Position numbers and translations under genes: made by a program. A stretch of 64,000 bases of DNA from Patescibacteria group bacterium (lineage in GTDB: Bacteria; Patescibacteriota; Minisyncoccia; Phycocordibacterales; PALSA-1337), in contig JBBTRA010000007.1 of NCBI GenBank assembly GCA_038065415.1, positions 34,615 through 98,614 of the forward strand. Direction: 5' to 3'. Numbering within the stretch: position 1 is the first letter of the stretch; every line of letters begins with the position of its first letter. The notes beneath the pieces were generated by a model. That model saw only the letters and a list, made by a program, of their open reading frames with translations, was not told the DNA's origin and did no database searches. Positions 7,902-60,527 of the stretch are shown in pieces.

Positions 7902-7935
7902 TATTGCATGAAAACCCCAATTTTTGAAGCCTGTA

Positions 7936-12060: not shown

Positions 12061-12134
12061 GGCTACCAGTATATCACGATGCGCACGACTGACCCTGTGC
12101 ACGAAAAAACCGGGCGTTACCCGGTTTTCATCTG

Positions 12135-14761: not shown

Positions 14762-15297
14762 GGCAATGATCGGGTAAAGCGCAAAGAGAACGGTATATCC
14801 CTACTCTTTGCAAGCTCAGATATCGGCAATTCTACTTTATTACCTATACCAAGATTCTCGAGCCGCGTCTTCAAGGATACGAGAGACTCTCGTGTAGGAG
14901 CTATCCCTTGAATGATCATCGTGGCGCTGGTTGTAGAAAGTTCAGAGAGCATGACGGAAGTAATACTGACGGAGGCGCGCGCTGAAACAACATCCTGTAT
15001 CAACAAAGAAGGCTTTGTACCTGCCTGTGAAGACGTAAGCGCCCTCACGAGTTTTGAGTCACGCTCCAGATCGCGCGCGAATACCGCCGACTGACTACCA
15101 TCGGCATCCTCTAATGAGCGTCCGAGCATCGTCTGGCTTCGCTCTTCGGCAGAGACAAGTATATATGCAGGAAACAATGAACAGATCCCTACAACCCCAA
15201 CTACAGACATCAGGAAAAGAGCCACAATCGCCGCATGCAAACGGTATCCGCGCTTAAGAGTCTTCTGTTCTTGGATAGGAAGGAAACTGTGTCTCAT
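14758..15297 (-). CDS. type IV pilus assembly protein, PilN-like (bitopic)
   Basis: 179 aa with an N-terminal TM. Its start overlaps the pilM stop by 4 nt (translational coupling). Confidence 0.45.
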   Translation of the reverse strand: MRHSFLPIQEQKTLKRGYRLHAAIVALFLMSVVGVVGICSLFPAYILVSAEERSQTMLGRSLEDADGSQSAVFARDLERDSKLVRALTSSQAGTKPSLLIQDVVSARASVSITSVMLSELSTTSATMIIQGIAPTRESLVSLKTRLENLGIGNKVELPISELAKSRDIPFSLRFTRSLP

Positions 15298-44900: not shown

Positions 44901-45063
44901 AGGATTTGGTGCCTATAAGTATATACCTGTTTATAGATTTGCAAACTTGTGGAGAACAAAAAAATATGTTGATAAGTTGGGGACAACAAACAATAACATC
45001 AATTGTGCAACACTGTCTTCAATAATATTGATTTATATCGAGATGTGCGGTATAGTCCTATCC

Positions 45064-45198
45064 ATGTCATTCACGTATAACCCAAACAAGCGCAAGCGCG
45101 CTAAGTCGCACGGATTCCGCGTCCGTATGAAGACTGCTCCAGGCCGTAAGGTCCTCGCTCGCCGCCGTGCCAAGGGCCGCACCCGCGTCGCTGTATAA
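45064..45198 (+). CDS. rpmH: 50S ribosomal protein L34
   Basis: [44 protein letters not shown]. Confidence 0.9.
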
Positions 45199-45546: not shown

Positions 45547-46296
45547 ATGTATAACGAACTCATATTTCGCCCGCTCTACAACGGCCTTGTTGGGATTATG
45601 GATCTCATACCGTGGATAGATGTCGGTATAGCCGTCATTATCTTTACTGCGATTGTGAAGCTCATCCTCTTTCCTCTTTCCAAGTCTTCTCTCCTGACTC
45701 AGGTCAAAATGAAAGAGATAGAGCCTGAGGCAGCGAAGGTCAGGGCGCAATATGCGTCAGACAGGCAGTTGCAGGCGCTCAAGATCATGGAGCTCTACAA
45801 ATCCAAGAACATCAAGCCGTTCTCGGGCATCCTCCTTCTCTTTATACAACTCCCAATACTGTTTGCACTCATATCGGTTTTCTACAAGATCATACCTACG
45901 ATTGATCCACAGTATCTCTACAGCTTCATTTCAGCGCCGGACATTTCTGGGAAGATCAATTTTCTCGGCCTCATAGACCTTACCCAAAAGAGCCTTATCT
46001 TGTCGTTGGCCACAGGAGCCATACAGTACCTTCAGTTACACTTCTCGCTGGCCTCGCGCCCCCCTGCTCCAGCTCCCGCTGGACAGACACCAGATATGGC
46101 CACCCAACTATCGCACTCCATGAGCAAGCAGATGAAGTATCTCCTTCCTATTATCGCCTTCGCTTCGACTTACTGGCTCATTCCAGCTCAGTTCCCGCAA
46201 GCAGCTGCTATTATCGCCATCTACTGGTCTACGAGTACGCTCTTCACTCTTGTTCAAGAGCTCTACATACGTAAAAAGCATATTGGTAAGCTGTAG
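45547..46296 (+). CDS. yidC: membrane protein insertase YidC/Oxa1 (short form)
   Basis: Follows rnpA. 249 aa with 5 TM helices and YidC-like motifs (LLLFIQLPILFAL). Confidence 0.85.
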   Translation: MYNELIFRPLYNGLVGIMDLIPWIDVGIAVIIFTAIVKLILFPLSKSSLLTQVKMKEIEPEAAKVRAQYASDRQLQALKIMELYKSKNIKPFSGILLLFIQLPILFALISVFYKIIPTIDPQYLYSFISAPDISGKINFLGLIDLTQKSLILSLATGAIQYLQLHFSLASRPPAPAPAGQTPDMATQLSHSMSKQMKYLLPIIAFASTYWLIPAQFPQAAAIIAIYWSTSTLFTLVQELYIRKKHIGKL

Positions 46297-46297
46297 G

Positions 46298-46405
46298 AAG
46301 CCAGCAGGACACATGCATTTCTGCTTGGCTATGTCGTGTTTGTACACGACATATTAGTGTACCGTTCTGCATAGCCAAGCAGAAATGCATGTGTCCTGCT
46401 GGCTT
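46298..46405. repeat. long perfect inverted repeat: 36-bp arms, 36-nt spacer containing a nested 7-bp hairpin
   Basis: Left arm AAGCCAGCAGGACACATGCATTTCTGCTTGGCTATG matches its exact reverse complement at 46370-46405. It sits between the convergent yidC and the first gene of the T4SS-like operon. Confidence 0.85.
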
Positions 46406-46417
46406 GACTCCTCTTAC

Positions 46418-47713
46418 CTAGTTACTCGAAACGAGATCCAATGACCAGAGAGTCAGGTCATTTTTGTTCATAAAGAAGAGGAAATCATCCTTCTCATCAA
46501 GTCCTAGATTGAAGGCATCGATGACACGATCAGACTTGTCTACGATAGACGATATGAGCTTAATCTCCCCTGTTGCACCGTTTATCTGCCAGATTTTATC
46601 CACAAAAGACACACTTCCCTTGTACCAATCATCTGGGTACGAGCCTACGATTGGCTGACTTGGAGCTGCGCAGTACACCATCTCCTTGTAGAAATTTCCC
46701 CACACACATTTGTCAGACATAGTGCGAACGATGGCATCGACTGTGGTTCCGTCTGCAATGGTGTATAAGTTGGATGATAGAGTTTTTCCACCAGATGAGA
46801 TGAGTACACGCTTGGCGTCAGTGCTCACTTTGGTGCTGATACCTATTACCGGACCGGCGATCTTTCTCCATATACCCGACTTTGGATCTACGAAGTAGAG
46901 GAACCCGCCTTCTGATGCTGTTCCTTTGGTGGTGATGGCTATAGTCTTCTCTTCCGGCCATTCTACATTGACCTGCGTGATCGGTGTGGTGAATATTTGA
47001 GTTATCGACTTTCCATCAAAGCTTGATACGTACCCTACTCCGGTACCACTCTCGTTGATGAGCATGAAGAGTTTGTCTTTCTTTGGGGAAGCGGCATATG
47101 CTATCAGGTTATCAGGAAGCCCTTTGCCTGCGAGCTCATATGGAGTGAGTGACTGCACTGCGGGGACTGTGGGTAGTGTTGAGCTTGCGGTAGAGGTTGC
47201 CACTTTTGGTACGGGGCGGAGTCTGATATCCGCATATACGGTTGATGTCTGACTGGTATTGTCCAAGAAAGATGATCCGATGAATGCCGTGAGGTTCTTA
47301 TTCCATATGCTTGAATATACGCGAGGTACAACCGTATTCGATATGGTCAATAGGTCAAGCTTGTCGCCGTGTGCCTCTATGATGTTCCCTCTTCCTCTAT
47401 CTATCCAGCGCACCACAGTCGTAGTTGCGGTCGTGCTCGCCCCGTATCCTCCAATCGGAGTGGTGCTCAAGAGGCGCAAAGCGGGCAGTTTAACGGCAGT
47501 GACCGGAGTTGTGGTCGACCCTGAAGGTACCTGTGTAGTAGGTGTCGATGGTTCCCCGTTTCCGGTAGGTGTCCTACCGAACGGAGTGAAACCGCTCGGA
47601 GTCTGTCCACCGTCTGGAGTAGCTGTATCCGTCGAGGTGCGCATGAAGAAGTACCAGTAGGCACCGGCACCGAGAAGTATGAAAACCAAAATGATAGGAA
47701 GTACTTTTTTCAT
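46418..47713 (-). CDS. secreted/anchored beta-rich protein (N-terminal TM, Thr/Pro linker, probable beta-propeller-like domain)
   Basis: 431 aa. N-terminal TM then TPSGFTPFGRTPTG, a motif shared with the 58705..59709 protein. Confidence 0.5.
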   Translation of the reverse strand: MKKVLPIILVFILLGAGAYWYFFMRTSTDTATPDGGQTPSGFTPFGRTPTGNGEPSTPTTQVPSGSTTTPVTAVKLPALRLLSTTPIGGYGASTTATTTVVRWIDRGRGNIIEAHGDKLDLLTISNTVVPRVYSSIWNKNLTAFIGSSFLDNTSQTSTVYADIRLRPVPKVATSTASSTLPTVPAVQSLTPYELAGKGLPDNLIAYAASPKKDKLFMLINESGTGVGYVSSFDGKSITQIFTTPITQVNVEWPEEKTIAITTKGTASEGGFLYFVDPKSGIWRKIAGPVIGISTKVSTDAKRVLISSGGKTLSSNLYTIADGTTVDAIVRTMSDKCVWGNFYKEMVYCAAPSQPIVGSYPDDWYKGSVSFVDKIWQINGATGEIKLISSIVDKSDRVIDAFNLGLDEKDDFLFFMNKNDLTLWSLDLVSSN

Positions 47714-47715
47714 GG

Positions 47716-48897
47716 TTAGTTGATCAGCATCACATCCTGGGGATTTATCTGACTGTTCTTTCTGTATTCAAGATCCTTTACGACCAAATCTGCTTTTTTG
47801 AGCAAAGCATCCTTCTTTTCTGCATCTGTTATTTTTGGTATTGCTTCGTCGATCATTTTTTTCACTGCGGCGAGCTGTGTAGCAGGATCGCCGGGGAATG
47901 AATTTTCCTGCAATACCAAAGAGCCGTATATCGGATAGTATATGTTATTAATATCTTGGATCTTATCCGCAGGGCTGCCAAATTCTTCGAGCTTCTTCAG
48001 GGCTGATGCGTATGTCTTTGCTGCTGCACTTTTGGCTCCACGGACAGTTGGCAGGTCGTTTGTGGTGGCGTTGCTCGTCTCACCGAGGTCTCTATTGATT
48101 GCCTGCATGGCCGTTATGATTGCCTCAGCTGACTTTTGGACCTGAACGGCCTTGGTGTCATTGAGCTGGTTATCGATGTTAGCAATCTCCCCTTCCAGGC
48201 GCGCGACAGCCTCTGTATCCCCGTTTCTGCGTGCGGCATCAAGGTCATACTGTACTGTCGCCCTTCGTTGAGTGAGTTGGGCAACAGTCGCTTTTGCGGC
48301 TTCGCGTTCAACTATGAGTTGTTGAGTCTGGACTTTATAGGCGTCTGCTTCTGCTGCAAGCTGGGTGAAGAATTCAGATACAGCCTTCTTGTCATATTTG
48401 AGCTCGAGTGGCGTCACTAGGGTGCTCGGTATGGCAACAAGTCTCGGATCTATTGTTCTCAATATGAGGTATGAACACAATACCAGGAGTAAGCCTTGCA
48501 ACGCTTTGATTATTGTTTCCTTCCCTTCATTCTTGCCGGTGAATGAATCACTGCTTGTGTATTTGAATCCACCCCACACAATCATGAACACGGCCGCAGC
48601 TGCAGACAGTGCTATCAACAGATTGAATACATATTGAACATATGTCTTGAAATCTACATCTTCCTGGGTTGCTCCGGAACACGCAACTTCAGTTCCGGGG
48701 ATTGCATTGCCGTTGGCATCCTTTGCTGCAGGACTTGGAATACATGGTAATGGTTCGAGCAGAGTGTAGCGCACCTCTTCGTCAGTGGTTTGTGCCTGCG
48801 ATAGTGTGGGAGCTATCAGGGCCACGCTCGAAAGCAGCAAGAAGAGTGCTAGAGACATTCTCGCACGGTAACCTATTTTTTTTGATGAAAATTTCAT
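47716..48897 (-). CDS. secreted protein with two hydrophobic helices (VirB2/TrbC-pilin-like topology) fused to a long coiled-coil domain
   Basis: Signal peptide, then two TM-like segments (YVFNLLIALSAAAAVFMIVWGGF and IIKALQGLLLVLCSYLIL), then about 220 aa of coiled coil. Confidence 0.4.
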   Translation of the reverse strand: MKFSSKKIGYRARMSLALFLLLSSVALIAPTLSQAQTTDEEVRYTLLEPLPCIPSPAAKDANGNAIPGTEVACSGATQEDVDFKTYVQYVFNLLIALSAAAAVFMIVWGGFKYTSSDSFTGKNEGKETIIKALQGLLLVLCSYLILRTIDPRLVAIPSTLVTPLELKYDKKAVSEFFTQLAAEADAYKVQTQQLIVEREAAKATVAQLTQRRATVQYDLDAARRNGDTEAVARLEGEIANIDNQLNDTKAVQVQKSAEAIITAMQAINRDLGETSNATTNDLPTVRGAKSAAAKTYASALKKLEEFGSPADKIQDINNIYYPIYGSLVLQENSFPGDPATQLAAVKKMIDEAIPKITDAEKKDALLKKADLVVKDLEYRKNSQINPQDVMLIN

Positions 48898-48906
48898 ATG
48901 TAGGTG

Positions 48907-49941
48907 TTAGAAAGCGGGTTCTTCAAGTGATGAGGATTTTTCCTGACTGAAGGCTGCAGAGAATCCCCCACTGGCTCCCTGCAGTATTTTAGCAGCATTC
49001 TTGATGCCCAGGGTTATACTCGATGAACCTGCGGAACCTTCGGGTGCGCGCAATACGACAGATTGATTGGATGAAAGCTCATCACGCCTGATACCGTTGA
49101 TTACCCACGAAAATGCGAGACTCCCGATACTGGAGATGGGCCTGTTAAATCCGTATGGAACAGCAAGCACACTAGTCTCTTTTTCTGAGCCGATATTCAC
49201 CACGGCTCCAATCATCTTGTTGAAAAGTGGGCCATAGAGCGGGTCGTCGATATAGAATCCAACTGTAGGGCTTTCCATGGTGACATATGCGATACCCTGT
49301 GCCCGTGCACTGTTGTCGCGAGGCCAGACACTTACAGATACGGTGTACGGGCGAGGAACAATGTCTCCGAGTATCGAGACAGATTGCTTACCGTACCCCG
49401 ATTGTTCCTCGATCACGCGTTCGTTCTTCTTCCACTGGTATATGAGTGTTTTAGGGTCGTACTCTACACCATCGGCGTCGGCCAGGTGTGGAACAGCGAT
49501 GACCTTCACGGTATTCTGGTATACCGTACCAAGCTTGCCTCTGAAGAAAGTCGGCGCATATCCGTCGGTCTCCGTAATCATATCCACAGATCCCGAGCCG
49601 ATAGTCACAGAAGCAGTTACGGTCCTTCCTTCGGTTGTTGCAGCGCTTACTGTCACGACAAACTTCTTTCCGAGAACAGGTGCTATGATTTCGAGTGTCG
49701 TGAGACCGATACCACTCTGGACCTGTTTTCCGTTGACTGACCAAGAAACTACAGAGGTGTTGATATCTATAGTGTAGCTACGGGCTCTCAAGATGACCGT
49801 TTGACCAGGAGCCGGATTCTCGTTGGATACAGATACATCAAGCCCGCCAACAGTGATAGGAACCTGCGCGCAAGCGGCAGATGCAGAAAGAAACATTGAA
49901 AATATGAGAAAGAGAAAATAACGAGATTTCATCTGTATCAT
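48907..49941 (-). CDS. secreted beta-sandwich protein (signal peptide)
   Basis: 344 aa. Signal peptide MIQMKSRYFLFLIFSMFLSASAACAQ followed by T/S/V-rich beta-strand repeats. Confidence 0.45.
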   Translation of the reverse strand: MIQMKSRYFLFLIFSMFLSASAACAQVPITVGGLDVSVSNENPAPGQTVILRARSYTIDINTSVVSWSVNGKQVQSGIGLTTLEIIAPVLGKKFVVTVSAATTEGRTVTASVTIGSGSVDMITETDGYAPTFFRGKLGTVYQNTVKVIAVPHLADADGVEYDPKTLIYQWKKNERVIEEQSGYGKQSVSILGDIVPRPYTVSVSVWPRDNSARAQGIAYVTMESPTVGFYIDDPLYGPLFNKMIGAVVNIGSEKETSVLAVPYGFNRPISSIGSLAFSWVINGIRRDELSSNQSVVLRAPEGSAGSSSITLGIKNAAKILQGASGGFSAAFSQEKSSSLEEPAF

Positions 49942-49955
49942 TTTACCACATGAGC

Positions 49956-50429
49956 CTATTTCACCAATCCCCCGCTTGGAGGTCGTACACCTCCTTTGTT
50001 AACACGCAATGCGGCTGTAGCGGAGCTACCTGCTGGTTGACGTACACCGCCCACATTTCGTGGTGATCGTATGCTGTTCGAGAGGAGAGATTTCTGCTGC
50101 TGCTGCGCTTGGATCTGAGCCTCTTCTTTTTTGACGTCGTTATATATATACCAAACATCGAACGTCCAGAAAGGGGCTATTCCCCCGGTGACTGCATCAC
50201 CCAAGGCAAAAGCCATGAGAGATATGAGACGTGTTGGCTTGTTGAATATCGGTATTCGGAAGAGTAGGAGGAGCCCGAGCAATACAGGACCTGTGATGAG
50301 CTCGAGCAACTCGCTTATGATGACGCCTACACCGGTGAAAGTGATCAAGATCTGCACGATATCGACGACTCCAGCTACGATATAGAGGATGGCCCACTGA
50401 ATCGTCTTTTTCTTGGGCTTTTTGTCCAT
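49956..50429 (-). CDS. small polytopic membrane protein (T4SS-associated)
   Basis: 157 aa with three hydrophobic segments and a Gln-rich tail. Confidence 0.4.
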   Translation of the reverse strand: MDKKPKKKTIQWAILYIVAGVVDIVQILITFTGVGVIISELLELITGPVLLGLLLLFRIPIFNKPTRLISLMAFALGDAVTGGIAPFWTFDVWYIYNDVKKEEAQIQAQQQQKSLLSNSIRSPRNVGGVRQPAGSSATAALRVNKGGVRPPSGGLVK

Positions 50430-50445
50430 GCGTCAATTATAGCAG

Positions 50446-50565
50446 AATCGCCCGGCAGGTATGCACCTGTATTTTCTCGATATCTCGCAGAACGATACAC
50501 TATTTTTTAGTGTAGACACGCAACGAGATATCGAGAAAATACAGGTGCATACCTGCCGGGCGATT
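50446..50565. repeat. long perfect inverted repeat: 42-bp arms, 36-nt spacer containing a nested 6-bp hairpin
   Basis: Left arm AATCGCCCGGCAGGTATGCACCTGTATTTTCTCGATATCTCG matches its exact reverse complement at 50524-50565. It lies inside the operon, between the virB4 stop and the next gene. Confidence 0.85.
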
Positions 50566-50571
50566 GGATCT

Positions 50572-52386
50572 TTATCCGGCTTGTTCCAGATCCTTCTTGG
50601 CCTGCTTGATACTCATGACCTGTGCCGGGTTGGTGGTAATGATCTGATCTTCGGTGTATGAGGCGACTATCTTGATGGCTACGTGCTTGAGTCCCACGAA
50701 GAATATACCCTCTCCTACATCTGATTCGAGCAAGAGATACTTCTCTTCGTCGGTGAGGTTGAACGTCTTTTGGATATGATCGATGACCGTCGGAGACTGC
50801 TTGAGCAGTATCTGAATGGAAGAGTTGGTAACGATCGGCAATCCGTACGGAGAGTTCAAGAAGTCATCCACATCCTGGGTGATAGTGGCAAGTCCGAGGA
50901 AGTATTTGCGACCACGCTTGGCCAAACTGAACAAGAATGAGGCAGTATCCTCTGATTTCATCATCCACCACGCTTCGTCAATGACGAGTAAGCGTTTCTT
51001 GAGATTCTTGCGGATAGCATTCCATATATAGTGTGTGACGATATACATGGCGACTGGTTTGAGCTCGTCTTCCATGTCGCGGAGTGAGAAAACAGCGAAC
51101 TTCTTATTGATATCTACGTTAGAAGGCCTGTTGATGAAGCCGGACCATGTTCCCTTGGTGTACTTGGAGAGCCTCTGAACAAGAGAGTCCCCTCCTTCCA
51201 TTCCAGCCAAGACAAGTTCGAAGTCAGACAGAAGTGGTGGCTCTACAGTACGGAAGTCTGCTTCAGGAGTGATGTCTTTGAGGGCGTACGTTTCGGTGAT
51301 AGCGCGATCGATGATCGCATCTTCTTCCTGGGTCAAACCACCAAGCATGATGCGGAAGAGTCCCACCAGGTTGATGATGTTGGAGCGGAGAACATCAGCG
51401 GCTGACTCGTCCTCGCGCGGTATCGGGAGATCAAATGGATTGATATGGTGCTCTGAATTGAGAGAGATGTTGAAGTACTTCCCTCCGGTTGCTTCGGCCA
51501 TGTACTCATATTCTTTTTCAGGGTCAATGACGATAACATCGGTATCGAACATGAGCGTACGCAGGATCTCAAGTTTGGTATTGTATGATTTTCCAGCTCC
51601 AGCAACGGCGAATGTTACGGAATTGTAGTTCTCGAGAGAGAATCTGTCGAAAAGGACGAGCGACGAGTTATGTCGATTGATGCCGTAGAGTATTCCTTTG
51701 TCGGAAGTAAGATCGAAGGAAACGAACGGGAACAGCGAAGACAGTGGGGATGAGTTGAGTTTGGAATGCACAGCGAGCTGGTCATCAGCTATAGGAATGA
51801 CCGATTTGAAGCCCTGTTCTTGCTGGAAGAGTGCCGGCTTTACATAGATGAGCTTTGATTCGAGGATGGATTTGATCTCAGATTCGAGCTTGTCGAGCTC
51901 CCCTTCGTTGTCTGCGAAGAGGGTGATGTAGACGCCAACATCAAAAAGATGCTCCTGTGCCTGCATGAGCTGGTCTCTGAGCTGTTCGAGGTCCTGGTAC
52001 GCTGTGTCGAGCGCCGGATCGCGGACGAGACCCTTCTCTTCCCTGTGTGAAATCTGGCTCTGTACCTCAGCAACCTTCTTCTGGAAATGTCTCAAGATCT
52101 TGGCTGTATCGACTGGGTGTATGAATATAGAGATGTTGAATATCTTGTCGAGGTTGATGATCGGGGCGAACCAGCTTTCATCGAGGAAGCGTGGGTATGA
52201 GATGACGAAGAGTGTACGGCCAACTTTTTCGCCTAGGTTGAGATCCTTTGGGCTGATCTTGAGTGCCGATGGTGATATGACATCCTTGAGCTCCAGCACG
52301 CCGGCCTGGTATATCTCTTCGGGTAGGATGGAGACGATCGGAGATTGCTCGTCTTTTTTCCCGAATAGTTTTCCGATGAATGACAT
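50572..52386 (-). CDS. virB4: type IV secretion ATPase VirB4/TrbE family (ATPase portion)
   Basis: Walker A AGAGKSY and Walker B LLVIDEAWWMM. The start is taken at the internal MSFIGKLF, 8 nt after the upstream ORF's stop. Confidence 0.85.
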   Translation of the reverse strand: MSFIGKLFGKKDEQSPIVSILPEEIYQAGVLELKDVISPSALKISPKDLNLGEKVGRTLFVISYPRFLDESWFAPIINLDKIFNISIFIHPVDTAKILRHFQKKVAEVQSQISHREEKGLVRDPALDTAYQDLEQLRDQLMQAQEHLFDVGVYITLFADNEGELDKLESEIKSILESKLIYVKPALFQQEQGFKSVIPIADDQLAVHSKLNSSPLSSLFPFVSFDLTSDKGILYGINRHNSSLVLFDRFSLENYNSVTFAVAGAGKSYNTKLEILRTLMFDTDVIVIDPEKEYEYMAEATGGKYFNISLNSEHHINPFDLPIPREDESAADVLRSNIINLVGLFRIMLGGLTQEEDAIIDRAITETYALKDITPEADFRTVEPPLLSDFELVLAGMEGGDSLVQRLSKYTKGTWSGFINRPSNVDINKKFAVFSLRDMEDELKPVAMYIVTHYIWNAIRKNLKKRLLVIDEAWWMMKSEDTASFLFSLAKRGRKYFLGLATITQDVDDFLNSPYGLPIVTNSSIQILLKQSPTVIDHIQKTFNLTDEEKYLLLESDVGEGIFFVGLKHVAIKIVASYTEDQIITTNPAQVMSIKQAKKDLEQAG

Positions 52387-52394
52387 AGTTCTTT

Positions 52395-53036
52395 TTATGT
52401 TATCTGGATAGGCTTCTCTGTCTCCCCTGGATTGAAGAGCTTGTAGAACAATTCTACCACCTCCTCTGTGCCGAGCTCTGCCGCCCTGATGCCGCAACGC
52501 ACGAGACCTTGCTCTACTACTGCTACGCGCTGTTCGAGTTGACTACGGTATTCTTGGAATTGCGCGTCAGCATTCATTTGAGCATTCTTTGCAGAATTCT
52601 TGCCGGGGAACATGCTTGCGAGCGGATTCTTGCTCGAGCTCATGATCGGTGGCTCATATGGTATGACGACGAAGAAGCTCTTGGACATGATATTGGTGCT
52701 CTCGACGAAGGTTTTGATGAATTCTATATACTCGCGAACCTGTATTTTCATGAGTTCAGTTAGCTGTTCTTTGTAGCGATCCTCTAGGAGGGCTATATAG
52801 GGTCTTATATCGAGCTTCTTTGACTGGACGAATATTTGAATGGAAAAATCTAGAGAATTTACGAAATTCTGGAATTGCATGAGGATGGAACTCTGCTCAT
52901 CTTGCGACTTGAGAGCGAAGTTGAGAGACGAAGCGAGTACGACCGCGCGCATGCCACCGTTCTTGAGGATGATGACGCCGTCGCGTATCTCCTGTATTGG
53001 TATGAAATCCTGTGTTGTTGATTGTTTTGGAGCCAT
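52395..53036 (-). CDS. VirB4 N-terminal domain encoded as a separate 213-aa ORF
   Basis: DFIPIQEIRDGVIILKNGGMRAVVLASSLNFALKSQDEQ resembles the N-terminal region of Gram-positive-type VirB4 homologues. Ends in TAA 8 nt before the ATPase ORF's start. Confidence 0.55.
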   Translation of the reverse strand: MAPKQSTTQDFIPIQEIRDGVIILKNGGMRAVVLASSLNFALKSQDEQSSILMQFQNFVNSLDFSIQIFVQSKKLDIRPYIALLEDRYKEQLTELMKIQVREYIEFIKTFVESTNIMSKSFFVVIPYEPPIMSSSKNPLASMFPGKNSAKNAQMNADAQFQEYRSQLEQRVAVVEQGLVRCGIRAAELGTEEVVELFYKLFNPGETEKPIQIT

Positions 53037-53041
53037 TGCTG

Positions 53042-53467
53042 TTATTTTTGATTGCGGTTGGAATACATGCTTTCTTTGATATCAAGGCTCCAGCTCAAGT
53101 CCTTGAGCTTGCTATCAGATATCTTGGGGACCATGATGGAGGCATAATTTTGAATGTCCTCTTTTGCTGCCTGGGCTTTTTTGTCCTCCTTCTTCCATAT
53201 ATAGAGCTTGCCGCCGAGATAATATTTGAAAGCTGCTTCGATGACGTTGACGAAAGATTTGTTGTTGACCTTGTAAAAAGCAAATGCTGCCGATATTCCC
53301 ATGATGAGGATAATCGGCACGATAGCGAGCGTGAAGCTCTTGAGTACTACATATGCCAAGAATGAGAGGCCTCCCCCGCCCGCGAGATATATGAACTGCT
53401 TCAAGGTGAGCGGTCCGAATATCTTATCTTCTACCTCGATGAATTGGGGTACTTGGAAGCGCATCAC
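53042..53467 (-). CDS. small membrane protein, VirB3/TcpE-like (putative)
   Basis: 141 aa with two TM helices after a conserved-looking N-terminus (FIEVEDKIFGPLTLKQFIYLAGGG). Confidence 0.4.
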   Translation of the reverse strand: MMRFQVPQFIEVEDKIFGPLTLKQFIYLAGGGGLSFLAYVVLKSFTLAIVPIILIMGISAAFAFYKVNNKSFVNVIEAAFKYYLGGKLYIWKKEDKKAQAAKEDIQNYASIMVPKISDSKLKDLSWSLDIKESMYSNRNQK

Positions 53468-53583
53468 TCTTTATTATAGCGGCAAGCGAGGGTGTGTAGC
53501 AACTCGTTGATACGACACCTGAGCGCCGCTGTTATATGAGCGAGGCGAATATAGCGTCTTTGCATGGTATCCACCAAGCATTT

Positions 53584-54303
53584 CTACTTGATCAGCTCTC
53601 GGTATGGATCATTTCCCTGTTTTTTGGGTGCTACGGGTGGTGTTGGTGTTTGTTTTGGTGCTTCTGTTGGAAGATTTGGTGGCACTTGCCCCGTATGTAT
53701 GGGAGATTGAGCCGCTACTTTTTCCTCGGTCATTCCTGCGGGGTTGCTCAGAAGGCGGTCGACGAGAGGTTCAGTGTGGTTCTCAAATGCAGCAGACTTG
53801 GTAGAAGGGGTTGTTCGAGGATTCTCGAGGTTATCCAGGATCTGGTCGCGGTCAGCAGAAGTCACTTCTTTGCCAAAATTTTGCTTTGGCGTCTCCTGTT
53901 CTATATCAAAACCACCAACACGCTCGATATTTTCGACTGCTGCAGAGTGATCTTGTTCAGCTTCATCCCGCTGAGAGCTCAGTTCAACTTCTGACTTTCT
54001 CAAGTAATCCCTGATGGAATCGAATATTTCGTGGTTTACATCAGTGGCCAATGCTTGAGCTACTTTGGATGGTATGCCCAGGCGTTCGGTGGCGTGTGAG
54101 ACGAAATCGGACGATCGTACGAGACCGAGCAGTATGAGCCCAATCTCATCGACGAGTTCACCGAGCTGATCTATGAGGAGGCCATGCTTCTTCCCCACGG
54201 CCATGATCTTGTCATGTATCTCTGGGGACGTCACTGCCGCCTGAAGCTCAGGAGAGAGCCTTTCAAACTGTTCTTTGAGTTGTTCTGAAGTGAATTGCCT
54301 CAT
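53584..54303 (-). CDS. hypothetical soluble protein (T4SS operon)
   Basis: 239-aa acidic protein with a Pro-rich tail. Its stop overlaps the virB6-like start by 4 nt. Confidence 0.4.
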   Translation of the reverse strand: MRQFTSEQLKEQFERLSPELQAAVTSPEIHDKIMAVGKKHGLLIDQLGELVDEIGLILLGLVRSSDFVSHATERLGIPSKVAQALATDVNHEIFDSIRDYLRKSEVELSSQRDEAEQDHSAAVENIERVGGFDIEQETPKQNFGKEVTSADRDQILDNLENPRTTPSTKSAAFENHTEPLVDRLLSNPAGMTEEKVAAQSPIHTGQVPPNLPTEAPKQTPTPPVAPKKQGNDPYRELIK

Positions 54304-56147
54304 GCTTTTGGTTTGTCGTCTTTAGGCTTTGCATCATCTTTTGAATCATCTTTCCCTTCCTCGGCGAGTGCACTTGCAAGTGCTTTCACATCTTTAGCCT
54401 TCTTTTTGCCAGATGCTCTGCCTATGGCTGCTCCCAAATCCTTAACCTTTCTTCTCAATTGATCCAGCTCAACCTTTTCCGCATTGGTGAATGTGTCGCC
54501 ACCTTCCTTCTCCCTCTTCTCAAGATATTTGAAGTTAGGTGATTCTTCTATATCCTGTTTTGCTTTTTTATTCTGCTCAAGCTCAGCTTCATCTTTCAAG
54601 CTGAATGCGGTCTCTACATTTGCCCTATCTTTCATCATGAGAGTGAGTACAGACCTGTCATTAAGGGTTGACCTGAACTTACCTTGATATCCCTTTGCCC
54701 GTCCCTTTGCCAGTTCTCTTTCAAGCTCAGTTTTATAGGCAGCATCATTAACGGATCCAAGGCGTTTATTAAGTGCATCTACATCCTTCTTCCTTTGCTT
54801 CAACGTAGCATCATAACTTCCTTTCTTGTCACCAAAACCGGCAGAACTGATGTTGGATAGTCCCTTCGAAACAGCAAGACCTAGGTTTGGATTGCGCGAA
54901 TAGAATGCACGAGCACCATCGCTATCATTGATCCTGCTTGCGGCCATGCCCAGCGTATTCCTGCCTGTCCATCCACCCACCTTCTTCCATAGTGCATCAG
55001 CTCCCAGCTTACTTCCGTCGAGCAAACCTCCCGTCTTGGCGCCGAGCTTGATGGCGACTAGGAGTGGTAGGTTGAGCATGACTATCACAAAGACGGCGTT
55101 GATCGCGAATGATACGAACTCAGTCGGTACAAGCGTTCCCGCATCGGTTCCCTGCCACAAGTTGCCGTAAGCTCCGCTTTTGAAGATGGTGCTCTTGGTG
55201 AGTATCAAGAGCGCTGCATACATGAGGAGCAGATATGCAGGCATGAATACAAGCTGTCCGGTGAATGTTTTGACCCATTCATTCGAGTATTCTTTGAGTT
55301 GAGGTATCACTGCCGCGGCGCACCAGACGGGCGAGAATGCGAGCAAGAATAGGAGTATAACCAGACGCACAACGAATGCGAGTGCTGCAAACAAGAAGCT
55401 TAGCCCTGTAGTTATCATAATGACTGCACCGGTCCAACCAATCAGGATGATCTTGAAAGGCGCCGATACCCCTCCCGTTGCGTCTGAGGATTGGAGGTTT
55501 TTCGGGTCGAATGCGCTCTGTATCTGGAGCGATTGCATGAATATCGCTGACAGACCTCCGTCATTGAAGAGAGTGTTCACGATCTGAGGCAACGCCCCTG
55601 CTCCAGCTGCACCGCTACCACTTCCGCTTTGCTGGATGATCTGGCCGATGTCCGGCTGTCCTGGGGTGATCGCTTTGTAGAGCTGGAGAGATACGATATT
55701 CGAAGCATCTATCAAGAGTCCGGTGAAGAAAAAGCTGAAATTGATGAGTACGCCGGCGACGACTACGTTCTTGATAACACCTCCAAGTTTGGCATCTTGC
55801 CCCAGAATCATGCGGATGGCCGCATAGAGCAGGGTGAAGATGATGAATAGGCCTGAAATATCTCGGATAGTGCGCCACACCTCATAGATAGCAGGTGTAC
55901 TGTCCACGAAATCCCTGATGTGCATGGTCAGGTTGATTGAGACGTTGAGGAGTGTACCGGTGAGTGCGACGAACCAGGAAGTTATCGAGAGCATCACATT
56001 CACGAGCAGAGCTACGCCTTCAGATATAAAATCCCAGAAGAGATTGTATCCAAACAATCCTTCTGCGTGCACCACGTGTCCGGAAAAGCCCACCACCGCG
56101 GCGATGAGTATGAGGCAGGCTGATATGTGACGTAGTGAAAGTCTCAT
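54300..56147 (-). CDS. VirB6/TrbL-like polytopic membrane protein with a charged K/D/E-rich C-terminal tail
   Basis: 615 aa with a signal-like N-terminus, at least 6 TM helices, and a tail ending KDDSKDDAKPKDDKPKA. Confidence 0.55.
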   Translation of the reverse strand: MRLSLRHISACLILIAAVVGFSGHVVHAEGLFGYNLFWDFISEGVALLVNVMLSITSWFVALTGTLLNVSINLTMHIRDFVDSTPAIYEVWRTIRDISGLFIIFTLLYAAIRMILGQDAKLGGVIKNVVVAGVLINFSFFFTGLLIDASNIVSLQLYKAITPGQPDIGQIIQQSGSGSGAAGAGALPQIVNTLFNDGGLSAIFMQSLQIQSAFDPKNLQSSDATGGVSAPFKIILIGWTGAVIMITTGLSFLFAALAFVVRLVILLFLLAFSPVWCAAAVIPQLKEYSNEWVKTFTGQLVFMPAYLLLMYAALLILTKSTIFKSGAYGNLWQGTDAGTLVPTEFVSFAINAVFVIVMLNLPLLVAIKLGAKTGGLLDGSKLGADALWKKVGGWTGRNTLGMAASRINDSDGARAFYSRNPNLGLAVSKGLSNISSAGFGDKKGSYDATLKQRKKDVDALNKRLGSVNDAAYKTELERELAKGRAKGYQGKFRSTLNDRSVLTLMMKDRANVETAFSLKDEAELEQNKKAKQDIEESPNFKYLEKREKEGGDTFTNAEKVELDQLRRKVKDLGAAIGRASGKKKAKDVKALASALAEEGKDDSKDDAKPKDDKPKA

Positions 56148-56153
56148 TATGTG

Positions 56154-57740
56154 TTAGCGCTGTCGTCCACTTGTTGGGGTATTACCAGGGAATCCTGCGC
56201 AATTGTTCTGATACTGCAGAGCTTCCGCATTGAATGCCGTCGCTTTTGTTTGGGCATCTCTGAGCTGGCTCTGTGCGAAACTGATACCAGCTACTGCGCT
56301 CGCCTTGGCATTGATGGCGATTTGCACGCTGGCCTGGTAGCCAGGAAGTTGTGACTGGATGTCTCCCGATGAGGCTATTTGGGCCCTCGTGTTCTGTATG
56401 ACTGCGATCTGGTTGGATGTACTTGCCTGCTTCAAGGTAAGGTCAGCAAGGAGTGGATCTACTTTGCTGGTAAGTGCAGTGTCTATGGCCGGGATCCACG
56501 AATTTTGGGCATACGTGCGTGCGGATGATGAATATTGTGTGTCGCTTACTTTGCTCAGAATGCACGATTTTGCAGTGAGATATCGGTTCTTGCTGTCGGT
56601 GACTGCGGCTATTGCCTGATCGTAGTATGACTTGTAGTCATTGAGCGCTGCAATCGCTGGGTCGAACACGCTCGAGAGCTGGGAGTTGGTACTCTGGGTG
56701 TCGGCCGCTTTCTGTGCATTGAGATCTGTGATGAGCTGGCTCGTATATGCAGTCCTGCCGCCGGAGCTTCCCCTGCTGAGTCCACTCAATCCCCCGCCGA
56801 TAACCTGGTTGATCATTTGTGAAATGAGCGCATTGACGACAGAGTTGATATCGTCTGCGAGCTCGAGTTCGGTGGCTGGAACGTCCAACTGTTTCTGGAG
56901 CATATTGGAAATGACGGATCCAGGAGTGTCGGTGGTACAGGTTTGGTATGTCACAGTTCCGTCATTATTCTGTTTCCTGTTCATGTCGCGGGAATTGCCG
57001 ACAATACTCTCGGCCTGCTCGACCTCGAACTCATTTTCTGGGTCGATGGTACCGCCAGGTATGTCAGTACAATTACGTCGAGACAAGAACCCTTTGCCAC
57101 GATCAAGATCACGATTGACCTGATTCTCGCGGGTGTCTATGCGTCCGAGAAGTTCGCTATGTGCTTGAAGGTATGACCCGTATACATTGTTCTGGGGCAC
57201 GGTCGTCATAGATACGAATGCCGGCCAACCTCCTTGGCGGAAATCCCCTCCCGTGAAACCTTCGATGGTGCCGTTCGCATTGCCTATTATCTTCCCCAGC
57301 GTACAGGTATACCTACTGGTAGCCGACTGTGTCTGATTGAGAGCGAGTCCGAGGCGGATATCGATACTGAATGGAGAACAGAGTCTTGATAGTGCACCCT
57401 CGCGTGAGAGGAAGTCACCGGTCACCTGGTCGGCAGCATCGAGGAAGAATCCCTCTGGATTGGTGATGAAGGTCGGACTACCCTGGAATCCGGTGTTGAT
57501 CCAATTGACCACGCTCACGGTCATCTGATGGAGGATCTGCTTGGCGATCAGTGTTGCAGCCTTGTCGAGCACGAAATCCTTCATGTGCGCCATGATGTTG
57601 TTGAAGTCGAAATCAGTGCCGATCGGGACATTGGTTGCCGCACCCTGTGCCTGAGCGATTTTCACAGGTGATGCGATGATCGAGCTCACCACGAATGTGA
57701 TCGCTGTAAAAGTGAGAATTATTTTGAAGGTAGTTTTCAT
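56154..57740 (-). CDS. large secreted protein (signal peptide), unknown function
   Basis: Start taken at MKTTFKIILTFTAITFVVSSIIASPVKIAQAQ; about 528 aa. Confidence 0.45.
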   Translation of the reverse strand: MKTTFKIILTFTAITFVVSSIIASPVKIAQAQGAATNVPIGTDFDFNNIMAHMKDFVLDKAATLIAKQILHQMTVSVVNWINTGFQGSPTFITNPEGFFLDAADQVTGDFLSREGALSRLCSPFSIDIRLGLALNQTQSATSRYTCTLGKIIGNANGTIEGFTGGDFRQGGWPAFVSMTTVPQNNVYGSYLQAHSELLGRIDTRENQVNRDLDRGKGFLSRRNCTDIPGGTIDPENEFEVEQAESIVGNSRDMNRKQNNDGTVTYQTCTTDTPGSVISNMLQKQLDVPATELELADDINSVVNALISQMINQVIGGGLSGLSRGSSGGRTAYTSQLITDLNAQKAADTQSTNSQLSSVFDPAIAALNDYKSYYDQAIAAVTDSKNRYLTAKSCILSKVSDTQYSSSARTYAQNSWIPAIDTALTSKVDPLLADLTLKQASTSNQIAVIQNTRAQIASSGDIQSQLPGYQASVQIAINAKASAVAGISFAQSQLRDAQTKATAFNAEALQYQNNCAGFPGNTPTSGRQR

Positions 57741-57741
57741 A

Positions 57742-58629
57742 TTATTGTGAAATAGTTGAGATATTGGAAAATGCTGCACCCGGTTCTCCTGCCGAGAACA
57801 AGACTCCGTACGATCTGAAATATACATTCAACCCCTGGAGCGCGGTGTTGATTGTATTCTTCGCAGGTGCGTAGGTGCCGAGCGCGACAAGTGCTTGCAT
57901 AGGATCCTTCTCGGTTGCTCGGAGTCCCTGCGCGATATAGAGGCTCATGCTGAGACCATTCAAGAGATCGAGATGGTATTGTTCGAGCGGCTTGGGAACT
58001 GACAGGGCGAGCATTGCAGAGATCATTCTCTGGTGCCCAGTGATGACTGGGTCAATCGAAGCAAGGATTGAGAAATCTTGTTTTTCCAAGGCTTCTGTTG
58101 CAATCATGGCCGCGTCGGTCGTCGGCATATGTGCGGCAAATGTTGAAACGAGCGTGTTTCCGTATCCATGCAATGCAGCTGTCCCCGCATCAGCAGAGAC
58201 GCGCACATCAGCGAGGGTGTACAAACGAGGGGCGAGAGCTGATTCGAGAGAAGTATCAATCGTGTAGTCGACAGCATTTTGCACGGCGGTTTCATTGCCG
58301 ATCAAGTTTCCCTGCTGTAATTGCACATAGCTTGTGAAAAAATTCCTGCCGATCTGATCAGTTAATGTGAGAGGTTCAGTATTCTGTTTCGCGGTACCTG
58401 TCGATGCTTTTGGTGCAGGTGCAGTGCTTGTTCCGATACTGAAAAATTGGCTTCTCCATGAATCTGATGTGCTTCGTGGAGCTTCATTTTCAGAGATGAC
58501 ATCTACAGTTGCGACAGGGGCATAGTCGCGAGATTTTCCTTGTCGGACATAGAGTGCGGTCGCAAGTACGGCAACTGCGCATACCACGAAAATGAGAGGC
58601 GTCTGAAGGCGCAAGGAAGAAAATGCCAT
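57742..58629 (-). CDS. membrane-anchored protein, unknown function
   Basis: 295 aa with an N-terminal TM (LIFVVCAVAVLATALYV). Confidence 0.4.
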   Translation of the reverse strand: MAFSSLRLQTPLIFVVCAVAVLATALYVRQGKSRDYAPVATVDVISENEAPRSTSDSWRSQFFSIGTSTAPAPKASTGTAKQNTEPLTLTDQIGRNFFTSYVQLQQGNLIGNETAVQNAVDYTIDTSLESALAPRLYTLADVRVSADAGTAALHGYGNTLVSTFAAHMPTTDAAMIATEALEKQDFSILASIDPVITGHQRMISAMLALSVPKPLEQYHLDLLNGLSMSLYIAQGLRATEKDPMQALVALGTYAPAKNTINTALQGLNVYFRSYGVLFSAGEPGAAFSNISTISQ

Positions 58630-58704
58630 ATACCCGCAATTATATCAGAGAATGGCTTTATTTCTGCGAATTCTGTGGACAGTCGATATGGTTTTATCTC
58701 TTGG

Positions 58705-59709
58705 TTATTGAGCTGATGTGCCGATTTGATAGATGGTGCCACTCGGACTCCCTTCGGGGGTGCAATCTTCACCGTGATATACGAGGCAACTGCCTCCTGG
58801 ACTATAGTTTCCGAGTACATTCTGGCCTGTCCCGTAAACGTTGTAGTTTGAGAATATTCTGCTTGCTCCTGGCTGGTATATGACGGAGACTGTTTGTCCG
58901 CGGACATCATTGATATCGAGCATAATAGATGAGGCGCAAGTGCAGTAAGTGACCCGGTTGACCCTGCCACCAAAGTTTTGCAGACCGCCGCCACCTCCCC
59001 CTCCGAATCCACCACCCCCGAAACTTCCTCCCCCTCCACCACCTCCAGCCCCGGGAAGGAAGTTGCCTAGAGTTGCACCAGTGGTCCCGTTTGGACTGAG
59101 TCCATAGAGCACATCGTATACCTGCTGGCCGAAATCACCGAGCAGCTGGGTCCAACCAAGACCGGTTAGGTAGCCCCAAACTTCCTTGTCGAGTTCTTTG
59201 AATCCTCCACCATCATCAGCGGGCTGGTAGGTTATAGTATCGCTCGATGTAGCCACATAATAGCTTTGCGGAGTGTATGAATTGTAGGTTATCGGAGCAT
59301 ACGTTGTAGGCGCAGGTTCAGAATATACGATGGGAGCATTGGAAGCCTGCGTGACTGAAGGAACATTGAATGAATCTCTGTATTCAGGGTCAGATCGTAT
59401 ATAAGTAACCGGAGGTGCTTGGTCTCGAGATGCGGGCGGTACGTATGTAGTTGACTCAGGTTCATCATCTGGTTCCGCCACAGGTTCTGGAGGAGTGTAT
59501 CTATAAGGAGTCTCTGTACCCCGAGCATCTATCGCCCGGTCGGTTGTCGGACGATCGAATGGAGAGAAGCCGGGTGGTGTTTCTGTAGAGTCCGGAGCTG
59601 TTTCTGATGGGTTCCACCATGCAATGAAGAGCCCGATAGCGAGCAAAAATAGGAGAAACGCTATGATGAGAGCAATCAGTTTTTTATGACCGCCATTTTC
59701 TTGGTTCAT
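58705..59709 (-). CDS. membrane-anchored Pro/Thr- and Gly-rich protein (first gene of the T4SS-like operon)
   Basis: N-terminal TM then TPPGFSPFDRPTTD, a paralogous motif shared with 46418..47713. Contains a GGGGGGGSFGGGGFGGGGGGG tract. Confidence 0.45.
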   Translation of the reverse strand: MNQENGGHKKLIALIIAFLLFLLAIGLFIAWWNPSETAPDSTETPPGFSPFDRPTTDRAIDARGTETPYRYTPPEPVAEPDDEPESTTYVPPASRDQAPPVTYIRSDPEYRDSFNVPSVTQASNAPIVYSEPAPTTYAPITYNSYTPQSYYVATSSDTITYQPADDGGGFKELDKEVWGYLTGLGWTQLLGDFGQQVYDVLYGLSPNGTTGATLGNFLPGAGGGGGGGSFGGGGFGGGGGGGLQNFGGRVNRVTYCTCASSIMLDINDVRGQTVSVIYQPGASRIFSNYNVYGTGQNVLGNYSPGGSCLVYHGEDCTPEGSPSGTIYQIGTSAQ

Positions 59710-59723
59710 GCACCACTATTCTA

Positions 59724-60527
59724 TCATGAAGCTATGGTGAACCAGTCCGGTATGGTGATATCTTCGGCTCGGATCTTGGGGTCAAGACCCGCTTTTGTCC
59801 ACACGGCCACGGCAGATTCCTTTTCTAGTGCCGCTTCTACGTTTCTGAGTGCAAATTTTCTTTTGTGTGCAAAACCCGCCTTAACAACTTTGAAGAATCT
59901 CGATATGTCGGTATTTTTTTCTCGAAAGAGTCGGTCGGATATGTCGGTGATCGAGAGAATTGCTGAGTCTACAGTCGGTGGCGGAGTGAAGGCTCCTGGC
60001 GGAACTTTCGCAACAAGCTTTGGTGTGCCAAATGCTTTTACTGATATAGAAAGGATGCTCTCTTTGCCATCTCGTGTGACGATGCGTTCAGCGACTTCCT
60101 TTTGTACAAGAAGCACCATTCTGTCCGGGCGCGGGCCATGTTCGAGGAATTTCTCGAGGATAGCTCCTGTTATGTAGTACGGGATGTTGGCGACCAGAGA
60201 GTAAGAAGCTGGGACTAGGGAGTAAGGAGACGCTGCTAGAGTTTCAGCCGTCATTTCTAGGATGTCCCCCTCAATGAGCTTCAGATTTCCTGCCAGGATG
60301 TCATCTTTGAAACTGTCTTTGAGCAGCTCTATGGCTCGAGCATCCTTCTCGACAGCTGTGACTTGTGCGCCCATGGCCAGGAGAGCACGTGTCAAAATAC
60401 CAGTCCCTGGACCTATTTCCAGCACAGCCTCCCCTTTTTGTAGGGTTGCTGCTGAAATAATCTGATCCAGTACATGTGTGGAGTTCAGAAAATGTTGGCC
60501 CAGGGATTTTTTTGCGAACAGTCTCAT
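59724..60527 (-). CDS. rsmA: 16S rRNA (adenine1518/1519-N6)-dimethyltransferase RsmA/KsgA
   Basis: LGQHFL motif and SAM-binding LEIGPGTGILT. Confidence 0.9.
   Translation of the reverse strand: MRLFAKKSLGQHFLNSTHVLDQIISAATLQKGEAVLEIGPGTGILTRALLAMGAQVTAVEKDARAIELLKDSFKDDILAGNLKLIEGDILEMTAETLAASPYSLVPASYSLVANIPYYITGAILEKFLEHGPRPDRMVLLVQKEVAERIVTRDGKESILSISVKAFGTPKLVAKVPPGAFTPPPTVDSAILSITDISDRLFREKNTDISRFFKVVKAGFAHKRKFALRNVEAALEKESAVAVWTKAGLDPKIRAEDITIPDWFTIAS

Follow-up and report, generated by a model that had tools for sequence, protein, structure and literature searches.

The cluster at positions 46418-59709 of a 64-kb window (the whole stretch of Patescibacteria DNA that was analysed, 64,000 nucleotides of contig JBBTRA010000007.1) is almost certainly a type IV secretion system (T4SS) of the Patescibacteria type. 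We consider it very probable that the system is chromosomal, derived from monoderm conjugation machinery and now a settled part of the core genome next to the replication origin, and in all likelihood it is non-conjugative. The DNA comes from a groundwater member of the Paceibacteria (public contig ENA ERZ1292624, Hain_H41_01um_R3_100). The locus is a relaxase-free Patescibacteria T4SS of a kind described between 2023 and 2025, and the novelty implied by an earlier sequence-only reading of the window does not hold, because the published accounts already cover the components, the lack of a relaxase and the location near the origin (PMC12102498, PMC10633639, PMC12857230). The new details are minor: a four-helix bundle in one accessory protein (g11), a lineage-variable C-terminal module on the pilin, and two hairpins with arms of 42-49 bp. 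The locus brings no new principle; what it offers is five or six unassigned conserved proteins as targets.

Twelve co-directional minus-strand genes make up the cluster, as was read from the sequence and as both the open reading frame (ORF) listing and independent gene calls on the source contig agree. From g12 to g01, with product sizes in amino acids (aa) and noting transmembrane (TM) segments and hidden Markov model (HMM) matches, they are

58705-59709, minus strand: g12, 334 aa, TM anchor, Pro-rich linker, poly-Gly stretch and Cys-containing C-terminal domain

57742-58629, minus strand: g11, 295 aa, bitopic, with TM anchor, linker and extracytoplasmic all-alpha domain

56154-57740, minus strand: g10, 528 aa, secreted or anchored, with a Cys-containing conserved N-terminal domain and a long C-terminal three-helix bundle

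54300-56147, minus strand: g09, 615 aa, polytopic by Kyte-Doolittle windows, with a charged coiled-coil tail; VirB6-like candidate

53584-54303, minus strand: g08, 239 aa, soluble protein with no TM segment, between the VirB6-like gene and the PrgI gene

53042-53467, minus strand: g07, 140 aa, VirB3-like small membrane protein of the PrgI family (PF12666)

52395-53036, minus strand: g06, 213 aa, TrsD-like stand-alone VirB4 N-terminal domain, from weak HMM matches below cut-offs

50572-52386, minus strand: g05, 604 aa, VirB4 ATPase, monoderm MPF_FATA-like, HMM match above cut-off; the signature protein of T4SSs

49956-50429, minus strand: g04, 157 aa, small membrane protein with 2-3 hydrophobic helices and a Q/G-rich tail

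48907-49941, minus strand: g03, 344 aa over these coordinates and 341 aa in the independent gene calls, secreted beta-rich protein with an N-terminal hydrophobic segment, likely a signal peptide

47716-48897, minus strand: g02, 393 aa, VirB2-type T4SS pilin (PF18895) with a coiled-coil tail

46418-47713, minus strand: g01, 431 aa, TM anchor, Thr/Pro-rich linker and conserved beta-rich domain; last gene of the cluster

The assignment rests first on g05, which matches the NCBIfam model NF045971 (conju_CD1110) at E 4e-109 with 366 bits against a cut-off of 325, and the TraG P-loop model PF19044 at 3.6e-25. Its AVAGAGKS fits the Walker A pattern [AG]x4GK[ST] and its LLVIDE is Walker-B-like, so the earlier call of a VirB4/TrbE ATPase with both motifs stands. 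Next to virB4 on its upstream side are g07 and g06, the intergenic gaps being 5 and 8 nt. The small VirB3/TcpE-like membrane protein of that call is g07, a PrgI protein well above its cut-off (PF12666, E 2.2e-12, 47.8 bits against 27) that is 48-79% identical across relatives. The g06 product weakly matches the first ~120-170 positions of several VirB4 models (Mbov_0397 at 100-233, CD1110 at 1-118, TrbE and VirB4_CagE, all below their cut-offs) as well as TrsD (NF041427, E 2.8e-5, also below cut-off), and a precomputed match places it in PF26593, TraC-like. The coverage of the CD1110 model by the two proteins is complementary, with g06 taking model positions 1-118 and g05 positions 185-733, so that together they behave as a split VirB4. 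A recent duplication of the VirB4 N-terminus was considered as the source of g06 and rejected, given this complementarity and the absence of pairwise similarity to g05.

A further clear component is the pilin. The g02 product matches PF18895 over residues 86-147 (E 2.2e-7, 31.3 bits, cut-off 26.6), and it is built of a signal peptide, a YTLLxPLP motif, two TM helices and a C-terminal coiled coil of ~245 aa, which is predicted to face outward; the VirB2-like twin helices fused to a coiled coil that had been recognised from the sequence are thereby borne out. It lies three genes downstream of virB4 and is the sole pilin gene in the window. The neighbouring g04 was tried as a second pilin and dropped, since a pilin-domain HMM built from g02 orthologues does not match it. 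All g02 orthologues match PF18895, and they keep the pilin domain while the C-terminal module swaps between lineages: elsewhere it is Cys-rich, Peptidase_M15_4-like with H..D...HxH-type motifs (E 0.0026), or CHAP/NlpC-P60-like (E 0.0035) (orthologues at L041:12922-13770, L054:15011-16312, L044:13190-14104, L057:12286-13131, L064:12876-13733 and L065:13337-14239). These hydrolase matches lie below the Pfam cut-offs and come from relatives, outside the window; if they are real, the orthologues concerned are fusions of a pilin to a peptidoglycan hydrolase.

The VirB6/TrbL-like polytopic protein with a charged tail that had been proposed corresponds to g09, and the proposal stands in part. Kyte-Doolittle windows give eight or nine hydrophobic segments, two of them overlapping, ahead of the charged tail, but the window protein itself is without a family match. 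Among the 36 orthologues scanned there are weak matches to TrbL/VirB6 (two, E 1.5e-3), CD3337/EF1877 (three, 1e-6), pLS20_p028 (two), Mbov_0396 (one) and MMCAP2_0566 (one); these nine are counts of family matches and may fall on the same orthologues. All of the families are conjugation-system membrane proteins, and a VirB6-like role for g09 is plausible. Its place two genes upstream of the PrgI-TrsD-VirB4 block is also similar to that of the VirB6-like gene in Southlakia.

A scan of one genome per species returned more than 555 VirB4 relatives, and the best 80 of these are 78-98% identical to g05 and all come from Paceibacteria/Parcubacteria metagenome-assembled genomes. The gene order is identical in every relative with a long enough contig, which amounts to dozens of Paceibacteria species with the same genes, the same order and the same housekeeping flanks. 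It reads uvrD, rsmA, a variable slot, g11, g10, g09, g08, PrgI, TrsD and VirB4, and continues from VirB4 through a small membrane ORF, g03, the pilin and g01 to yidC, rpmH, dnaA and dnaN on the far side. An 11-gene module, g11 to g01, is thus fixed beside the origin within one large Paceibacteria lineage. Among 35 genomes with the complete set of flanks, chosen by VirB4 similarity and with DnaA and DnaN taken from the same genomes, the median identity is 81% for VirB4, 63% for TrsD, 59% for DnaA, 57% for PrgI and 49% for DnaN, and the extracytoplasmic proteins have medians of 27-38%. That VirB4 exceeds DnaA points to an unusually strong constraint for a secretion ATPase. On these comparisons the cluster is a vertically inherited core locus with a conserved engine and a fast-evolving surface, and an engine more conserved than DnaA combined with fast surface parts fits an essential host-interface machine. 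Among plasmid VirB4s the best match reaches 36.5% identity to g05; the closest plasmid VirB4s (28-36%) are all from monoderms and carry, where annotated, a CD1110-family or DUF87 label, and on this ground we place the origin of the system in monoderm conjugation machinery. The grouping of g05 with the chromosomal VirB4s of Paceibacteria was judged by HMM family and pairwise identity.

Domain scans of the 64 kb found no type IV coupling protein (T4CP), relaxase or integrase domain in window ORFs of at least 250 aa, in line with the absence of VirD4, relaxase and integrase noted earlier; the other ORFs of this size are housekeeping genes (e.g., thyA, folD, DsbA, enolase, Mur ligase, amidase, Fpg, PolA, PilB, RuvB and PBP1). 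No tRNA lies at the cluster edges, all seven tRNAs of the window being at 10-27 kb, no direct or att-like repeats were found to bracket the cluster, no Rfam elements surround it, and its GC content is that of its surroundings. An ordinary integrative conjugative element (ICE) or a remnant of one, with its relaxase, T4CP and integrase outside the window, could still draw on the membership of VirB4 in the conjugation-type CD1110 family and on the fact that relaxase and T4CP genes may be distant from virB4 (PMC12102498). It has to face dozens of species with the same order and housekeeping flanks and a divergence that tracks host genes, the lack of an integrase, tRNA, flanking direct repeat or compositional break, and a count of only 109 relaxases in 3,035 Patescibacteria genomes (PMC12102498). 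We regard the ICE reading as largely refuted and extremely improbable, and the sequence-only preference for a chromosomal, possibly non-conjugative apparatus is upheld by the missing mobile-element genes, tRNA and att repeats together with the conserved synteny.

For the function of the chromosomal T4SS we turn to cultured relatives. In Southlakia, the T4SS genes SEML1_0006-0019 are mostly essential for epibiotic growth by transposon sequencing (Wang et al. 2023, PMC10633639), and this gene set includes VirB4, PrgI and the pilins, with no recognisable coupling protein or relaxase (PMC10633639). A 2025 nomenclature review lists the Patescibacteria systems as a new monoderm T4SS type with potential pili (PMC12857230), and in one cultured member of the Microgenomatia tubular structures are reported to reach the host and host RNA to be taken up, with the authors suggesting that the tubes may be T4SS pili (bioRxiv 10.64898/2026.06.21.733656). 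By analogy with Southlakia, the locus described here is rather probably required for host-dependent growth, and the chances that it forms an extracellular pilus or tube are about even. In the mechanism we propose, VirB4, TrsD, PrgI and the VirB6-like g09 would form a membrane translocon that polymerises, or at least presents, the pilin, whose two helices would sit in the membrane or in the polymer with the C-terminal tail pointing outward. The anchored or secreted g01, g03, g10, g11 and g12 would build the wall-spanning, host-contacting part, and the whole apparatus would join the epibiont to the host cell and move macromolecules, either in the uptake of host material or in the delivery of effectors. 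Import of host macromolecules is possible yet doubtful, and the same has to be said of effector export; a conduit or uptake role is slightly favoured over effector delivery by analogy, as these organisms depend on host material and the 2026 preprint points the same way. The Patescibacteria T4SS is among the few candidate machines that could explain the host-dependent life of a large, metabolically minimal part of bacterial diversity.

Several points weigh against this reading. The VirB6 call fails for the window protein, as g09 has no Pfam or NCBIfam match. The essentiality and the pili ascribed to the Paceibacteria T4SS are extrapolated from Saccharimonadia and Microgenomatia. The architecture outside the membrane is guesswork, because five of the conserved proteins are without an assigned fold or family, and a pilin with a ~245-aa tail may polymerise unlike VirB2. 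VirD4-like T4CP homologues occur in most Patescibacteria genomes, far from virB4 (PMC12102498), and a distal coupling protein could likewise be encoded outside the 64-kb window.

Other functions would also be compatible with a T4SS in this position. A one-way effector injector or contact-dependent weapon that harms or manipulates the host, with no import, is rather unlikely in our estimate. Most non-conjugative T4SSs do export proteins, Ptl and the Brucella VirB system work without a T4CP (PMC12102498, PMC12857230), and the C-terminal modules of other Paceibacteria pilin orthologues resemble peptidoglycan hydrolases; however, those resemblances are sub-threshold and outside this window, neither the cluster nor its immediate neighbourhood contains a recognisable effector, toxin or immunity gene, and no substrate-recruiting ATPase is nearby. 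Were the locus mainly for adhesion or attachment, its pilin and surface proteins keeping the epibiont on the host with no transport, the many fast-evolving anchored surface proteins and the outward-facing variable module of the pilin would be readily accommodated, but not an ATPase engine more constrained than DnaA; type IV pili, moreover, already serve adhesion in these bacteria (PMC12857230), and a pilin, PilM and PilB are encoded in the same window, which leaves this explanation unlikely. A DNA-uptake machine like the Helicobacter ComB or archaeal Ced systems, feeding the cell with nucleotides or genes, seems quite improbable to us. T4SSs have been recruited to DNA import time and again, these organisms are without nucleotide synthesis, and import of DNA or other macromolecules has been proposed for such systems (PMC12102498). 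The cluster yields a weak CedB match (E 2.8e-8), but its 32.8 bits are far under the cut-off of 700. No cluster protein matches a Ced family at cut-off, although no search aimed at CedA was made, and the cluster contains no partner resembling CedA or ComEC. When Southlakia lost comEC, competence disappeared and viability was unaffected, whereas the T4SS remained essential (PMC10633639, PMC12857230).

Scans of the window proteins against Pfam and NCBIfam gave no family match for g01, g03, g04, g08, g10, g11 or g12, and PDB profile searches with alignments of the g09, g10, g11 and g01 orthologues gave nothing below E 0.05. Of the surface set, g03 and g01 are both conserved in 35 of 35 relatives, the latter at 25-66% identity and with its TM segment at residues 4-22. 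A pooled Pfam scan of g01, g03 and g08 orthologues returned sub-threshold Ig-like (immunoglobulin-like) matches (BiPBP_C, PKD_3, Ig_3, MG4, TIG and Big_2), which we attribute to g03 and which suggest that it probably consists of Ig-like beta-sandwich repeats, and sub-threshold propeller-like matches (DPPIV_N and PD40), which we attribute to g01, whose domain is possibly a beta-propeller; the pooled result does not itself assign the matches to individual proteins. The soluble g08, aligned over 32 orthologues, has a conserved N-terminal helical domain with IENP and LVDHLL motifs and a C-terminal D-P-Y-R-E motif in which D, Y and E are invariant, R is kept in at least 90% and P in at least 70%. 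This protein may act as adaptor, substrate or regulator. In some g10 orthologues a DUF4141 motif, AQWxVIDPxNxVQ, stands right behind the signal peptide, the match covering only ~40 residues; the window protein is without it, and a single-sequence PDB search with a DUF4141-bearing orthologue found nothing. This orthologue motif and the site directly upstream of the VirB6-like gene give rise to the weakly supported hypothesis that g10 is a TraI(DUF4141)/VirB5-like partner of VirB6.

The structure model of g11 is an all-alpha four-helix bundle without the NTF2-like alpha+beta fold, and on that basis the candidacy of g11 as VirB8/PrgL/TraM was rejected. Most g11 homologues (P0127-P0227) bear bacterial thrombospondin type 3 repeats (PF18884), which are calcium-binding and apparently sited after the TM anchor, while g11 of the window has no Pfam match. 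The remaining two proteins are less constant. Homologues of g04 are recognisable in 7 of 35 relatives, and a small membrane ORF always follows VirB4, so that the slot appears conserved and the sequence to diverge fast. For g12, with its hydrophobic segment at residues 11-29, a homologue is recognisable in 8 of 35 syntenic relatives and other genes fill the slot elsewhere; it is a peripheral, variable component. These proteins invite a bolder reading, which as a whole we hold to be unlikely: a structurally new envelope-spanning, host-piercing apparatus that imports host macromolecules on the conserved VirB4/TrsD/PrgI/VirB6 engine. Within it, the sole pilin may be a carrier that displays a lineage-specific outward module, a coiled coil here and peptidoglycan-hydrolase-like elsewhere; the DUF4141/VirB5-like g10 may cap or nucleate the structure on VirB6; g11, the propeller-like g01 and the Ig-like g03 may replace VirB8 and the VirB7-10 scaffolds; and the DPYRE-tailed g08 may dock on the ATPase as adaptor or substrate.

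The start of g05 was moved from that of a 641-aa ORF beginning with TTG to the ATG at 52386, and that of g10 from a 557-aa ORF to 57740, just ahead of the signal peptide. With the corrected starts, the intergenic distances from g12 to g01 are 75, 1, 6, -4, 116, 5, 8, 142, 14, 9 and 2 nt, so that the tight packing described from the sequence is confirmed, with junctions of -4 to 14 nt except for the three gaps of 75, 116 and 142 nt. The several 4-nt overlaps reported with it come down to one, between g09 and g08, and the suggested count of 13 genes with a separate VirB4 N-domain is wrong, as the 12 already include that ORF. Pfam matches identify the flanking genes as

42219-43325, minus strand: dnaN, origin-side flank

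43554-44900, minus strand: dnaA, origin-side flank

end of the ORF at 44863-45198, plus strand: rpmH, origin-side flank

45547-46296, plus strand: yidC, origin-side flank, convergent with g01

59724-60527, minus strand: rsmA/ksgA, other flank

60533-62563, minus strand: uvrD/pcrA, other flank

62781-63893, plus strand: LysM-LysM-M23 peptidase, two genes past the cluster and divergent from it

The cluster thus does lie between core genes, with yidC on one side and rsmA and uvrD on the other, as had been said. In relatives, rsmA and uvrD are kept in most cases and the M23 gene only in some. The statement that the window holds no VirB1-like lytic enzyme is correct insofar as the M23 gene is not VirB1, but it passes over the LysM and M23 peptidase at 62781-63893, and VirB1-like candidates of Patescibacteria often bear M23 and LysM domains (PMC12102498). 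A T4SS role for this gene, syntenic in some relatives only, is unproven. The cumulative GC skew is lowest at ~46-47 kb, close to dnaA, rpmH and yidC, consistent with an origin at this site. With the origin in that place, the T4SS cluster, rsmA and uvrD would be on the lagging strand and read towards the origin, head-on with replication, an orientation that is kept in relatives.

Two long inverted repeats, the only ones in the 64 kb, both fall in the T4SS locus, and neither has a U-tract:

50446-50565, unstranded: inverted repeat in the gap from VirB4 to g04, its 42-bp arms perfectly complementary and 36 nt apart

46285-46418, unstranded: inverted repeat where g01 and yidC converge, its 49-bp arms 88% complementary and 36 nt apart

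The first folds as RNA at -92 kcal/mol (z -17), is followed directly by a TATAAT box and the g04 start, and is likely a transcript boundary or stabiliser; for the second the value is about -89 kcal/mol whichever strand is folded (z about -13). Relatives carry intergenic hairpins of 30-56 bp with unrelated sequence at other positions (L002:17213-17332, L002:20352-20482, L007:17343-17470, L008:15907-16094, L008:2055-2160 and L012:1103-1221), and long hairpins look like a general habit of these genomes, as transcript ends, stabilisers or small palindromic elements, and not like a T4SS-specific feature. The starts of g12 (59710-59723), g11 (58630-58650), PrgI (53468-53490) and g04 (50430-50445) are each preceded, at a distance of 7-12 nt, by a TATAAT or TAGAAT box, and no Shine-Dalgarno-like sequence was seen in the 25 nt upstream of these four genes. 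Of 74 PrgI orthologues, 56 (76%) have a -10-like box no more than 15 nt from the start, as do 21 of 22 g11 orthologues (95%), against about 25-32% for rsmA, VirB4 and g01; a scan for promoter and terminator consensus sequences gave counts not above those of shuffled sequence. Given the boxes near the starts and the hairpins after VirB4 and g01, the 13-kb operon probably comprises three or four leaderless or short-leader units.

The dispersed type IV pilus genes and the DsbA-VKOR pair named in the sequence-only reading are present by their domain matches: a type IV pilin with an N-methylation motif and a Laminin_G_3 domain at 11272-12102, PilM with a weak PilN at 14758-16277, a PilB-type ATPase at 33577-35250, and a VKOR gene (E 3e-25) that overlaps a DsbA-like thioredoxin gene at 6791-8093. 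Their union with the T4SS into one surface machinery is not sustained, being a mere co-occurrence in the window of genes that are scattered among housekeeping genes and unlinked to the cluster.

Among known systems, the likeness to the Bacteroidetes MPF_B type is confined to the DUF4141 N-terminal motif of some g10 orthologues and the position of g10 directly upstream of the VirB6-like gene; in Bacteroides the DUF4141 gene lies between traG (VirB4) and traJ (VirB6) (PMC10434189), and the Cys-containing domain and 180-aa three-helix bundle of g10 are without a demonstrable counterpart. With the monoderm MPF_FATA systems (CTn2/CD1110, pCF10 Prg, pGO1 Trs and pIP501) the locus shares the VirB4 family, PrgI, TrsD and, if the g09 candidate holds, a VirB6-like polytopic protein, and both are without the outer-membrane parts VirB7, VirB9 and VirB10. 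Those systems differ in being mobile, in having a relaxase, a T4CP, a VirB1-type hydrolase and VirB8-fold proteins, and in lacking VirB2 pilins.

The two closest comparisons are within the Patescibacteria. Southlakia epibionticum ML1, which belongs to the Saccharimonadia, has the same block of PrgI, TrsD-like and VirB4 genes near the origin, PF18895 pilins, and a VirB6-like gene upstream of PrgI, with two intervening genes there and one here. It differs in having a tandem array of six pilins, an additional 999-aa protein and a protein with the NTF2-like (VirB8) fold, whereas the present locus has one pilin fusion and no NTF2-like fold in g11, the sole candidate modelled. Quinonero-Coronel et al. 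(2025) found VirB4 in 80% of 3,035 Patescibacteria genomes, as its own clade inside MPF_FATA, with TrsD, PrgI/VirB3, VirB6 and VirB2-like pilins near virB4 and relaxases almost absent (PMC12102498); in Paceibacteria and Microgenomatia, virB4 is near dnaA, dnaN, KsgA, RnpA and RpmH (PMC12102498). Compared with the Paceibacteria T4SS described there, the locus has a single long-tailed pilin in place of an array and a VirB6 candidate that escapes the HMMs, neither of which is an essential difference. It has in common with that system the MPF_FATA-type VirB4 with adjacent TrsD, the PrgI/VirB3, candidate VirB6-like and VirB2-like pilin components, the absence of a nearby relaxase or T4CP, and the chromosomal setting by dnaA, dnaN, ksgA (rsmA) and rpmH.

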